Shown: in pieces, positions 34,676 to 37,410 of the stretch
Layout of the letters: every line of letters begins with the position of its first letter
How positions within the stretch are numbered: position 1 is the first letter of the stretch
Source: Escherichia coli
GTDB lineage: Bacteria > Pseudomonadota > Gammaproteobacteria > Enterobacterales > Enterobacteriaceae
Reading direction: 5' to 3' (one strand)
NCBI RefSeq assembly: GCF_009931435.1
Contig: NZ_CP043414.1
Length of the DNA: 64,000 bases
Notes under the pieces: generated by a model
What the model was told of the DNA's origin: nothing
What the model saw: only the letters and a program-made list of their open reading frames with translations
Databases searched by the model: none
Position numbers and translations under genes: made by a program

Positions 34676-35134
34676 TTATAGAGACAAGTCCTGCAGTCGC
34701 TCCGATAAGTCTCCAGTAGCCAACTGCTCTGCGTCGATATCTTCCTTGACCTGTTGATGCCAGGTTGTTTCATCCCACAGCTCAAACTTGTTGAACTGTC
34801 CAACCAGCATCACTTCTTTTGTCAGACCGGCATGTTGCCGCAGTACTGGCGCGATTAACAATCGACCGGCGCCATCCATCTGACATTCGCTGGCATGACC
34901 TAACAGAAGGCGCTGCACACGGCGCTCAACCGGGTTCATGCTCGACAGACGCGATAATTTTTGCTCGATAATTTCCCATTCAGGCAGGGGGTAAAGCAGC
35001 AGGCACGGGTGATGAATGTCAATGGTGCAAACCATTTGACCGGCAGCGTTCTCAAGCAGCTGTTCCCGATAACGGGTAGGCACTGATAAGCGCCCTTTGC
35101 TGTCGAGATTGACTAACGTTGCTCCCCGGAACAT
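34676..35134 (-). CDS. mraZ: Transcriptional regulator MraZ, 152 aa
   Basis: Track ORF 34676..35170 trimmed to [29 protein letters not shown]...; the upstream 12 codons of the track ORF overlap the operator repeats. Confidence 0.93.
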
Positions 35135-35149
35135 GCCAGCCTCACCCCT

Positions 35150-35181
35150 TATTCCCACTTTGCCCCACAATTTCCCACTGA
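35150..35181 (-). promoter_or_regulatory. MraZ operator: three direct repeats GTGGG spaced at 10 bp in the mraZ leader/Pmra region
   Basis: Minus strand reads GTGGGAAATT GTGGGGCAAA GTGGGAATAA immediately upstream of the mraZ SD; consistent with reported TGGGN direct-repeat MraZ binding sites. Confidence 0.6.
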
Positions 35182-35734
35182 AAGGAGTTTACGGAGCGGA
35201 GGAAAAGCTTGTCAAGCCAGTCACAAGGCATACCGAGGTAAAAAACCCGATGTTTACGGCTAATATCAGCGTTGTTTATTTTACGTCCAACGTGCGAAGC
35301 AAATTAACGTTATGAATAGCTGTAAGAAAAAATCCCTCATCGTCATCACCGTTTTAAAATGACTAACTATTTTCCACAGCAAATATAAAGTGTCAGTTTG
35401 CGACGCGAGCGGCATTTTAGGACATATCTTCCCCGGTTAACAGTCCCTGTTGCGTCTGTGTGGCGCTTGATGCCAGCAGGTTTGCGCAAAAGCAAAGAAA
35501 AGTGTTTGTTAAATCGGCAATTCATCTCTGCATGTAACAAAATAATGCAAAAACGCTCTGTCAATATTGCTTAATTATTGTGAATTTCAGCAGGTGAGTT
35601 AATTAATGGGCGGGTTTAAAAGCATTTATCAATAATAGCCAGGAATAGTCTTATTTACTTTAAGGATATTGATGTCCATTCCCGTACTCGACGCGCCAAT
35701 GAGAAATTCACTGGCGCGTATTTTTGTTCGCGGC

Positions 35735-36739
35735 TTAGTTACGGCTGAGCACGCCGCGGCGATAGAGATTACGTTTAATGCGCGTTAACCCAGGTTTTGG
35801 CTTACGCGGTTCGTCCAGGCTTGCCAGGACAATTTCCAGCACACGCTCTGCGACATCGCGGTGACGTTGAGCCACTGCCAGCACCGGGCACTGTAAGAAG
35901 TCGAGCAGTTCGTTATCGCCAAAGGTGGCAATTGCCAGGTCAGAAGGCAGTTTGCCATCGCGACGCAGCGTGACATCCATCACCCCTTGCAACAACGCAA
36001 ACGACGTTGTGAACAGCGCCTGCGGCATCGGATGCGTTTCCAGCCATTTTTCGAATAACTGGGCAGCCGCCTCCCGCTCATAACTGTTGGCATAAAGGAA
36101 ATGCACTTCGCGCGGATCATCTTTCCAGGCAGTACGGAAACCTTGCTCACGCAAGAAGCTCACAGAAAGCTCCGGCAGCGCGCCAAGATAAAGCACCGTC
36201 TCGGCGGGAAACTTACGTAACTCTTCCGCCAGCATTTCGGCATCATCCTGATCGGCACCAACCACGCTGGTGAAGTGTTCACGATCGAGGGCGCGGTCCA
36301 GCGCGACAATCGGGAACGGGTCGTTAGCCCAGCGTTGATAAAAAGGATGCTCTGGTGGCAACGACGTCGAAACAATAATGGCATCAACCTGACGCTGTAG
36401 AAGATGCTCAATACAACGCATTTCGTTGTCTGGCTGATCTTCTGAGCAAGCAATCAGCAGTTGATAACCCCGTTGCCGCGCCTGACGTTCAAGATAATTA
36501 GCGATGCGGGTATAGCTGGTGTTCTCCAGATCGGGGATCACAAGACCAATAGAACGTGTGCGTCCAGCACGAAGCCCAGCTGCCACGGCGTTCGGGTGGT
36601 AATTGTGCTCACGCACCACAGCCATGACTTTTTCAACGGTTTTGTCGCTCACACGGTATTGCTTCGCTTTGCCGTTAATAACATAGCTTGCAGTGGTCCG
36701 CGACACTCCCGCTAGCCGAGCGATTTCATCCAGTTTCAC
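35735..36739 (-). CDS. cra: Catabolite repressor/activator Cra (FruR), LacI family, 334 aa
   Basis: Track ORF; [65 protein letters not shown]... Confidence 0.96.
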
Positions 36740-36863
36740 AATTGCCCCTTGCGTAAAATGTAAAAACCATAGCCATTGTACTGGTATGGGTTAAATTCAT
36801 TAACATCTAAGCGCAGAAAATTAACTGCGGCAACTGCTTTTATTCCAGGTTCCCACTGAATTC

Positions 36864-36893
36864 GCAAAAAAAGCCCAACGTGACATGTTGGGC
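36864..36893 (-). terminator. Intrinsic terminator downstream of ilvH
   Basis: Minus strand: GCCCAACATGTCACGTTGGGC followed by TTTTTTT, located between the ilvH stop (36919) and the cra promoter. Confidence 0.7.
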
Positions 36894-36918
36894 TGCAAAT
36901 TGCGCATTGAGATCATTC

Positions 36919-37410
36919 TCAACGCATTATTTTATCGCCGCGCGAAAGTCCAACTACACCAGAGCGAGCAACTTCCACAATTTTCGCCACATCGCGAATC
37001 GATGTTAAAAATGCATCAAGCTTATCGCTGGTGCCTGCCAGTTGGACGGTGTAAAGCGATGGCGTGACATCGATGATTTGCCCACGAAATATTTCCGTAT
37101 TGCGCTTCACTTCGTCACGTCCGTAGCCGCTGGCCTGAATTTTCACCAGCATAATTTCCCGCTCGACGTGCGCCCCCTGCCCCAGCTCGCTCACGCGCAA
37201 GACATCGACCAGTTTGTGTAATTGCTTTTCGATCTGCTCAAGCACTTTTTCATCGCCCACGGTCTGGATGGTCATACGCGATAATGTCGGATCGTCGGTG
37301 GGCGCAACGGTCAGGCTTTCAATGTTGTACCCACGTTGGGAAAAAAGGCCAATCACGCGGGATAACGCGCCTGATTCATTTTCGAGTAAGACTGATAATA
37401 TCCGGCGCAT
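36919..37410 (-). CDS. ilvH: Acetolactate synthase III small (regulatory) subunit, 163 aa
   Basis: Track ORF 36919..37440 trimmed to [36 protein letters not shown]... (ACT domain). Confidence 0.94.

Follow-up and report, generated by a model that had tools for sequence, protein, structure and literature searches.

A candidate composite upstream control region for the dcw operon in the cra–mraZ spacer of Escherichia coli

Background

The dcw cluster determines how much cell-division and cell-wall machinery is supplied, and in the textbook view it has one upstream promoter, Pmra, which is repressed by MraZ. This study deals with the spacer between cra and mraZ in a 64,000-nucleotide stretch of Escherichia coli DNA (contig NZ_CP043414.1), the whole of which is referred to as the window. 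The window is inverted relative to E. coli K-12, and coordinates are window positions unless they are given as K-12 positions. The locus is composed as follows:

34676..35134, minus strand: mraZ coding sequence, first gene of the dcw cluster; 152-amino-acid open reading frame (ORF) from the ATG at 35134, 99.3% identical to K-12 MraZ (K-12 b0081)
35135..35734: cra–mraZ spacer, exactly 600 bp; K-12 equivalent 89033..89633
35735..36739, minus strand: cra, adjoining the spacer

Further neighbours of mraZ and cra are rsmH, ftsL and ilvIH. The spacer is present in 5,423 of 5,426 complete E. coli genomes, and its sequence is 100% identical to that of E. coli strain 2013C-4282. No feature is annotated in it in the K-12 RefSeq record, nor in the 30 listed records of the 5,423 matching ones. 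A sequence-only reading of the window had described a 600-bp spacer holding Pmra and three GTGGG boxes, and had suspected a hidden small RNA (sRNA) or nucleoid-protein site in it. The extent of the spacer is confirmed by the coordinates, with the mraZ ATG at 35134 and cra occupying the positions from 35735 on. Here, the conservation of the spacer, published maps of transcription start sites (TSSs), motif searches and RNA folding are brought together to interpret this region.

Methods

A MraZ scan with one genome per species gave 80 loci, including those of Escherichia, Citrobacter, Klebsiella, Enterobacter, Kluyvera, Buttiauxella, Cedecea and Siccibacter, and conservation values are the mean identity to the window across species. 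The MraZ route to distant relatives was too narrow: the best 120 homologues were all at least 85% identical, and 50%-identity representatives were too sparse. The reach beyond the family was obtained by a Cra homologue search, which gave the cra–mraZ loci of Serratia, Rahnella, Pectobacterium, Erwinia, Edwardsiella, Morganella, Xenorhabdus and Leminorella. Transcription starts were taken from the K-12 Cappable-seq TSS table (PMC4782308), of which the rows covered at this locus are those of the K-12 plus strand. Hexamer positions were read from the K-12 sequence, and window coordinates of the TSSs were obtained via an alignment map.

Results

Conservation of the spacer

cra lies directly upstream of mraZ in 78 of the 80 loci, and the spacer measures 556-733 bp. 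The spacer alignment is a mosaic in which the cra-proximal part evolves freely, and three blocks (C, A and B) stand above the level of codon third positions. Mean identities are listed below in the order of reference positions, weakly conserved stretches and blocks:

cra codon third positions: identity 0.52
mraZ codon third positions: identity 0.68
cra-proximal ~65 nt: identity 0.24
stretch between blocks D and C: identity 0.32
GC island: identity 0.39
block D, 35652..35630: identity 0.57
block C, 35552..35531: identity 0.84
block A, 35421..35381: identity 0.945
block B, 35334..35296: identity 0.84

The unconstrained parts of the spacer score 0.24-0.39, and the excess of blocks A, B and C over codon third positions indicates unannotated functional content. 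The sequence-only reading had allowed that conservation outside Pmra might prove poor; it is strong there. Of the 21 positions at which the spacers of the window strain and K-12 differ, 19 are in 35446..35734; blocks A, B and C are free of differences, as is the whole of 35381..35443. An AT-rich character had been assigned to 35330-35660 as a whole. Two AT-rich troughs are indeed present, but the composition is not uniform, a GC-normal island lying between them (GC in 100-nt windows 0.31 at 35300-35399, 0.54 at 35400-35499 and 0.33 at 35500-35649).

Two further observations concern the variable part of the spacer. The cra-proximal half (35446-35734) diverges by 6-8.5% between the window strain and K-12 and the mraZ-proximal half by 0-2%; most E. 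coli genomes are 95-99% identical to the window strain over the spacer, an unusually high within-species divergence. In the eight genera reached through Cra the cra–mraZ interval spans 465-1,411 bp, or 465-958 bp without two loci that carry alaE. This gene (PF06610) lies between cra and mraZ, divergent from mraZ, in Serratia and Pectobacterium (locus L089, 3043-3483; locus L090, 3090-3527) at ~880 bp from mraZ, and is missing there in Enterobacteriaceae. In E. coli, the variable cra-proximal half of the spacer may be a remnant of the alaE arrangement.

Pmra and the MraZ operator

The known part of the spacer lies next to mraZ and contains the following features:

35178..35215, minus strand: Pmra, with -35 TTGACA at 35215..35210, -10 TAAACT at 35191..35186 and TSS at 35179/35178 (K-12 89589/89590)
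35154..35178, minus strand: MraZ operator, three GTGGG boxes 10 bp apart from +1/+2 of Pmra, read from the sequence
35210..35225: CRP-like box TGTCAAGCCAGTCACA with 1 mismatch, found by pattern search and overlapping the Pmra -35

Pmra, with its 18-nt spacing between hexamers, and the three boxes at 35178..35174, 35168..35164 and 35158..35154 are present as named in the sequence-only reading. In the promoter scan Pmra matches the consensus at 10/12 positions, and its conservation is 0.98. The Cappable-seq table places its start at K-12 89590 (window 35178/35179) with a score of 27.2, TAAACT ending 7 nt before it (PMC4782308), and Kim 2012 reported the E. coli TSS 89589 together with an orthologous Klebsiella TSS. 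The boxes are direct repeats of 10-bp periodicity immediately 3' of the Pmra -10, and GTGGG-N5-GTGGG-N5-GTGG is kept in an alignment of 14 genera from 7 Enterobacterales families. MraZ reportedly binds such GTGGG repeats. Both the promoter and its three repeats agree exactly with the Pmra and MraZ operator system that Hara 1997 and Eraso 2014 reportedly describe. That known part covers only ~80 of the 600 bp, and the features newly reported here lie upstream of it.

Regulators have also been reported at mraZ. It is among the reported CRP genomic-SELEX (systematic evolution of ligands by exponential enrichment) targets, and the TGTGA half-site of the CRP-like box is kept only in Escherichia and Citrobacter. 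PdhR binding at mraZ has been published as weak, with a 1.7-fold enrichment in chromatin immunoprecipitation. A PdhR box for the spacer was rejected: the nearest site, AATGGTGCAAACCAT at 35021-35035, has 3 mismatches and belongs to the mraZ coding sequence. The window does contain a perfect PdhR box, ATTGGTCTTACCAAT, at 2760-2774, presumably in the pdhR promoter.

Two side observations concern the surroundings of Pmra. In a deep alignment, families other than Enterobacteriaceae share AAATATTGCCAAA(G/C)CGC 30-55 bp upstream of the Pmra -35, and Enterobacteriaceae carry a replacement for it, such as GGGTTTTTTACCTCGG in E. coli; the element may be a lineage-specific UP element or regulator site. 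The distance from the Pmra -35 to the mraZ ATG is bimodal (80-82 or 87-91 bp), with modes 10 bp, or one helical turn, apart.

Additional promoters upstream of Pmra

The spacer had been taken to have no function assigned beyond Pmra, which holds for the RefSeq annotation but not for the published TSS data. The K-12 Cappable-seq table has four plus-strand starts inside the spacer (PMC4782308), three of them in addition to Pmra, here named P4, P3 and P2:

35625..35652, minus strand: P4 with block D; TSS 35625 (K-12 89143), score 6.2; -10 TATTAT at 35637..35632, ending 7 nt before the TSS
35531..35552, minus strand: P3 with block C, TTTGCATTATTTTGTTACAT; TSS 35531 (K-12 89237), score 2.1; -10 TATTTT at 35544..35539, 8 nt from the TSS
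35381..35443, minus strand: P2 with block A; TSS 35408 (K-12 89360), score 9.4; -10 TAAAAT at 35419..35414, 6 nt from the TSS

All four starts lie 6-8 nt after a TAnnnT hexamer. P3 is weak and its block C is found in 79 of 80 species; the conservation of P4 and block D is moderate only (0.57). No conserved -35 was found for P3 or P4, and the consensus scan called none of P2, P3 and P4.

The P2 start precedes that of Pmra by 229 nt and the mraZ ATG by 274 nt, and its Cappable-seq score is about one third of that of Pmra. Its TAAAAT is invariant and is followed by the GC-rich discriminator GCCGCTCG. A -35-like element, CTGTTAAC, is located at 35443..35436; its pattern, CTGTTAnC, is near-invariant and lies 18 nt upstream of TAAAAT, and CTGTTA is a poor -35, matching 3/6 of TTGACA at 18 nt. 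The first ~28 nucleotides of the P2 transcript, GTCGCAAACTGACACTTTATATTT, are near-invariant as well. In the 14-genus alignment, block A (TAAAAT...GTCGCAAAC) is confined to Enterobacteriaceae and "Erwinia sp. HR93", and the other families have only a faint AAA...GCAAA trace at its position. The SMRT-Cappable-seq tables have no entry for the cra–mraZ locus. The distance from block C to the P2 -10 is also bimodal (~124 or ~134 bp), again with modes 10 bp, one helical turn, apart.

The arrangement can be compared with the rrn P1/P2 tandem promoters, which have upstream Fis sites and GC-rich discriminators. It resembles them in having several co-directional promoters, a GC-rich discriminator after the P2 -10 and an A/T-rich upstream region, and it differs from them in its poor P2 -35 (CTGTTA) with an 18-nt spacer.

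An order-wide element between P2 and Pmra

Block B lies between P2 and Pmra:

35296..35334, minus strand: block B, with T-tract at 35332..35327, core ATTCATAACGTTA at 35317..35305 and extension TTTGCTTCG at 35303..35295

Its centre is at ~-132 from the Pmra TSS, and its core is about midway between the promoters, at a distance of ~102 bp from both the P2 -10 and the Pmra -35. Across the 80 species these two distances are 100-103 bp and 101-104 bp, respectively, and the distance from the cra stop to block C ranges over 137-315 bp. The sequence within both fixed-length intervals is only ~50% conserved. Within the block, ATTCA, TTA and T are invariant, and four positions between them vary. Throughout the 14 genera, which represent 7 Enterobacterales families, the core has the form WATCAT-N4-TTAW and its distance from Pmra is unchanged. 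The core reads ATTCAT-N4-TTA in Enterobacteriaceae, Leminorella and Erwinia, TATCAT or AATCAT-N4-TTA in Serratia, Rahnella, Pectobacterium, Edwardsiella and Xenorhabdus, and AATCAG-N4-TTA in Morganella.

This pattern resembles the core consensus of integration host factor (IHF), WATCARNNNNTTR, to which the E. coli core matches at 7/9 positions, that of Serratia, Rahnella, Pectobacterium, Edwardsiella and Xenorhabdus at 8/9 and that of Morganella at 9/9. The variable positions of the core coincide with the N4 of the consensus. The A/T tract that IHF sites carry about 8-15 bp 5' of the core is likewise present, always on that side of it: TTTTTT at 35332..35327 in the window and AAATT(T)-rich sequence in the other families. 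Block B is probably a site for IHF or a similar bending protein, a prediction made from sequence. The suspected nucleoid-protein site has a counterpart in an order-wide motif that resembles an IHF site.

Sigma-70 promoters with an upstream IHF bend are known, among them ilvPG and narG, where IHF binds near -125 between the NarL sites and FNR. The likeness lies in a WATCAR-N4-TTR-like core with a 5' A/T tract, at ~-132 here, and in rigid spacing to the promoter with a conserved distal element ~100 bp further upstream. The cra–mraZ spacer differs in three respects: the E. coli core has two mismatches and is a candidate site from its sequence, the distal element is an active promoter and not a known activator site, and sequence conservation is far above that of typical IHF sites.

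The high conservation also bears on another explanation, which we regard as rather unlikely, namely that block B, perhaps together with block A, serves as an operator for a specific transcription factor and is not an architectural site of IHF type. The candidates would be a LysR-type regulator on ATTCA-N5-TTAAT (T-N11-A) or a looping repressor on GCAAAC...GTTTGC-like inverted arms ~105 bp apart. The invariant ATT.A-N5-T.AAT is an interrupted palindrome, GCAAA and TTTGC are mutually inverted in blocks A and B at ~10 helical turns, ~40 bp at near-100% identity exceeds most IHF sites, and PdhR and CRP have been reported at mraZ. On the other side, none of the consensuses that were tried fits: the PdhR-like site lies inside mraZ and the CRP-like box at the Pmra -35. 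Moreover, the palindrome is weaker outside Enterobacteriaceae, where the IHF-like WATCAT...TTA half is better, and any dimeric site would have a variable left half (ACAGCT or ACAAAT).

Comparison by eye gave no fit of blocks A and B to sigma-54, sigma-28, sigma-32 or sigma-E promoters, or to LexA, PurR, Cra, NrdR, PhoB, OmpR or RcsAB sites. The DnaA-box pattern is TTWTNCACA; TTTTCCACA at 35370-35378 on the plus strand, between blocks A and B, fits it in Escherichia only and not in other genera.

A possible RNA fold at the 5' end of the P2 transcript

Parts of blocks A and B are also complementary to each other, and the P2 transcript could fold over the segment that they enclose:

35292..35408, minus strand: possible 117-nt 5' domain of the P2 transcript, in which block A (GCG..GCAAA) would pair with the 3' part of block B (UUUGC..CGC) and an internal hairpin would lie at ~35391..35361

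Such a closed 117-nt domain may exist, on evidence that is moderate and comes from Enterobacteriaceae alone. The P2 TSS at 35408 is 2 nt before the 5' arm of the closing helix. This helix is part of the minimum free energy fold in 72 of 75 species, with mean pairing probabilities of 0.84-0.93; 97% of its cells are paired, and only 1 cell is changed on both sides. On the sense strand the mean z-score is -1.9, compared with -0.8 on the antisense strand and values between -0.4 and +0.4 in 40-nt-shifted or neighbouring segments. Pair 7-128 is GU in 36 cases, GC in 25 and AU in 10, and never A-C. Pairing in the internal hairpin reaches 84%, while slid controls give 29-49%, and compensatory changes on both sides occur at 4 of its pairs. 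The length from A to B is fixed at 128-133 nt.

These results raise the possibility that blocks A and B are conserved mainly as the closing helix and core of a structured 117-nt P2 leader, a cis-regulatory, UpsM- or riboswitch-like element that would tune P2 transcription or translation into mraZ and the dcw genes, for instance via Rho access or RNA stability. A long mraZ leader that yields an RNA has a precedent in Rhodobacteraceae. We consider this reading doubtful but keep it as the main alternative to a function at the DNA level. RNAalifold found no consensus structure (-0.9 kcal/mol), the whole 276-nt leader has a z-score of -0.26, and the segment boundaries were picked after the helix had been seen. 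Covariation is nearly nil because the arms of the closing helix are almost invariant. In the divergent lineages L068 and L071/L083, block A is kept but the complementary TTTGC is lost, and outside Enterobacteriaceae the core of block B persists but the pairing is absent. For a structured leader, no terminator or expression platform, no Rfam match and no Term-seq 3' end was found. A hairpin of the Pmra core with the Shine-Dalgarno sequence in read-through RNA, which would sequester the latter, reaches -34.7 kcal/mol; it was given no weight because its z-score of -0.20 is no better than that of shuffles.

A stronger form would make the 117-nt multi-stem domain of a second conserved dcw promoter a sensor or regulatory leader, the enterobacterial counterpart of UpsM, overlooked since Pmra dominates; blocks A and B would then be a P1-like helix with a near-invariant core. 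We judge this improbable. UpsM, from the extended mraZ 5' leader of Rhodobacteraceae, is comparable in its distant upstream TSS, 268 nt there against 274 nt for P2 (Weber et al. 2016, PMC5089854). However, UpsM has a strong Rho-independent terminator in species without an mraZ-proximal promoter, whereas here Pmra is the main promoter and no terminator was found, and the P2 leader has no sequence or Rfam similarity to UpsM.

Searches for a free-standing sRNA or a small protein

A free-standing, trans-acting sRNA from P2, P3 or P4 that ends before Pmra is very unlikely. P2 does combine a conserved promoter with a conserved 5' end, like many sRNA seeds, and a T-run, GGGTTTTTT, lies at 35246..35241, ~165 nt downstream of the P2 start. 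This conserved run (GGGTTTTT) is not preceded by a conserved GC-rich stem, and it occupies a loop position in the fold. Neither the consensus scan nor the fold gave an intrinsic terminator between P2 and mraZ, the Term-seq table has no 3' end between K-12 83641 and 89783, and Rfam at permissive E-values gave chance-level matches only (osmY, 19.9 against a gathering score of 46.9; Spot_42, 15.6 against 80). The sRNA that had been suspected is thus unsupported as a free-standing molecule by Rfam, terminator and Term-seq searches.

That the spacer encodes a small protein, be it one of two minus-strand ORFs or a leader peptide over block B, has next to no probability. Both ORFs are present in the window strain, and the translation of block B is a hydrophobic peptide; no Shine-Dalgarno sequence is evident. 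The candidates were rejected as follows:

35367..35564, minus strand: 65-codon ORF, not a gene; its TTG start occurs in the window strain only and is TCG in K-12
35281..35415, minus strand: 44-amino-acid ORF over blocks A and B, not a gene; anywhere between 7 and 75 amino acids long in 79 species

The 65-codon frame, which had been singled out in the sequence-only reading, does exist, but it is not conserved: it is open only in E. coli, and other species have 0-52 codons and one chance 72-codon frame. In the 44-amino-acid ORF the variable codons give non-conservative L/P/T/R changes, and its ATG lies upstream of the P2 TSS. Over block B, neither a start nor a stop codon is conserved in any of the three frames, ATG being present in no more than 25% of species.

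The cra side of the spacer

The cra-proximal end of the spacer is occupied by a hairpin:

35691..35719, minus strand: cra terminator hairpin ACGCGCCA...TGGCGCGT, a 12-nt inverted repeat with 92% complementarity

The GC-rich hairpin that immediately follows the cra stop codon differs from genus to genus, and sequence conservation is 0.24. On the cra strand, the Escherichia hairpin (35691-35728) is preceded by an A-run and lacks a following U-run. The T-run, TATTTTTGTT, is therefore on the opposite strand, and the structure looks better suited to terminating antisense transcription towards cra. Other genera have ordinary or two-sided cra terminators. Just upstream of cra, RefSeq annotates a 28-amino-acid "fruR/shl operon leader peptide" in strain 4/4 (locus L088, 5406-5492). 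The ORF is matched in the window at ~36821-36907 on the minus strand (ORF 36821..36922 with an inner Met); the K-12 record does not list the peptide in the region covered.

Discussion

After the cra terminator the spacer carries P4, P3, P2 and Pmra, four tandem sigma-70-type promoters that are all directed towards mraZ. We put forward, with about even confidence, that the spacer serves as a composite control region upstream of the dcw operon and works mainly at the level of DNA and transcription initiation. It would probably comprise three layers: the cra terminator; three added co-directional promoters, of which P2 is conserved and moderately active; and an ancient architectural site between P2 and Pmra, probably of IHF type. 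In the proposed mechanism, block B at ~-132 would bind IHF or a similar bending protein. The bend would bring block A, P2 and the rest of the upstream DNA back onto Pmra, which could then be modulated by RNA polymerase or a regulator bound upstream. Transcripts from P2 would run through Pmra and the MraZ operator to give an mRNA with a 274-nt leader, a second and differently regulated input to the dcw genes. The near-invariant 28 nt after the P2 start may have a further function in Enterobacteriaceae, as an operator, as the 5' arm of the leader RNA fold, or as both.

Several points weigh against this composite control region. With up to 2 mismatches allowed, the E. coli spacer contains 13 IHF matches, against 12.7 expected in shuffles; the case for block B rests on conservation and not on motif score because the E. 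coli match is no better than chance. The motif can also be read as a LysR-type ATT-N9-AAT site. A DNA-level function leaves unexplained why the segment from A to B folds better on the sense strand than on the antisense strand or in shifted segments. P2 is supported by one dataset (Cappable-seq), and its read-through into mraZ is a step that we infer. In the less sensitive TSS study of Kim 2012, Pmra is the only start for both E. coli and Klebsiella. Weber et al. 2016 (PMC5089854), who surveyed public RNA-seq data, reported that bacteria other than Rhodobacteraceae use a proximal mraZ TSS exclusively. The cra–mraZ spacer was not found in the part covered of the RNA polymerase-alone (constitutive promoter) table. 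Finally, E. coli strain 4/4 (NZ_CP023826.1) carries the insertion sequence IS5 at CTAA 35417-35420 inside CCTAAAAT, within the P2 -10 region. The insertion (locus L088, 2806-4001) separates the P2 -10 region from the -35 and from blocks C and D in 1 of 5,423 genomes, in a strain that is evidently viable. P2 and everything upstream of it are therefore dispensable for viability.

Conclusions

The elements of the cra–mraZ spacer are of known kinds and are newly recognised at a well-studied locus. If the interpretation is true, the spacer holds a rigidly spaced and deeply conserved module, composed of a promoter 229 nt upstream of Pmra, a bending-protein-like site midway and a possible leader fold. 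It would provide mutable targets for testing how dcw transcription is coupled to growth and nutrition. Such a module would also explain why a spacer of 465-960 bp is kept before mraZ throughout Enterobacterales.

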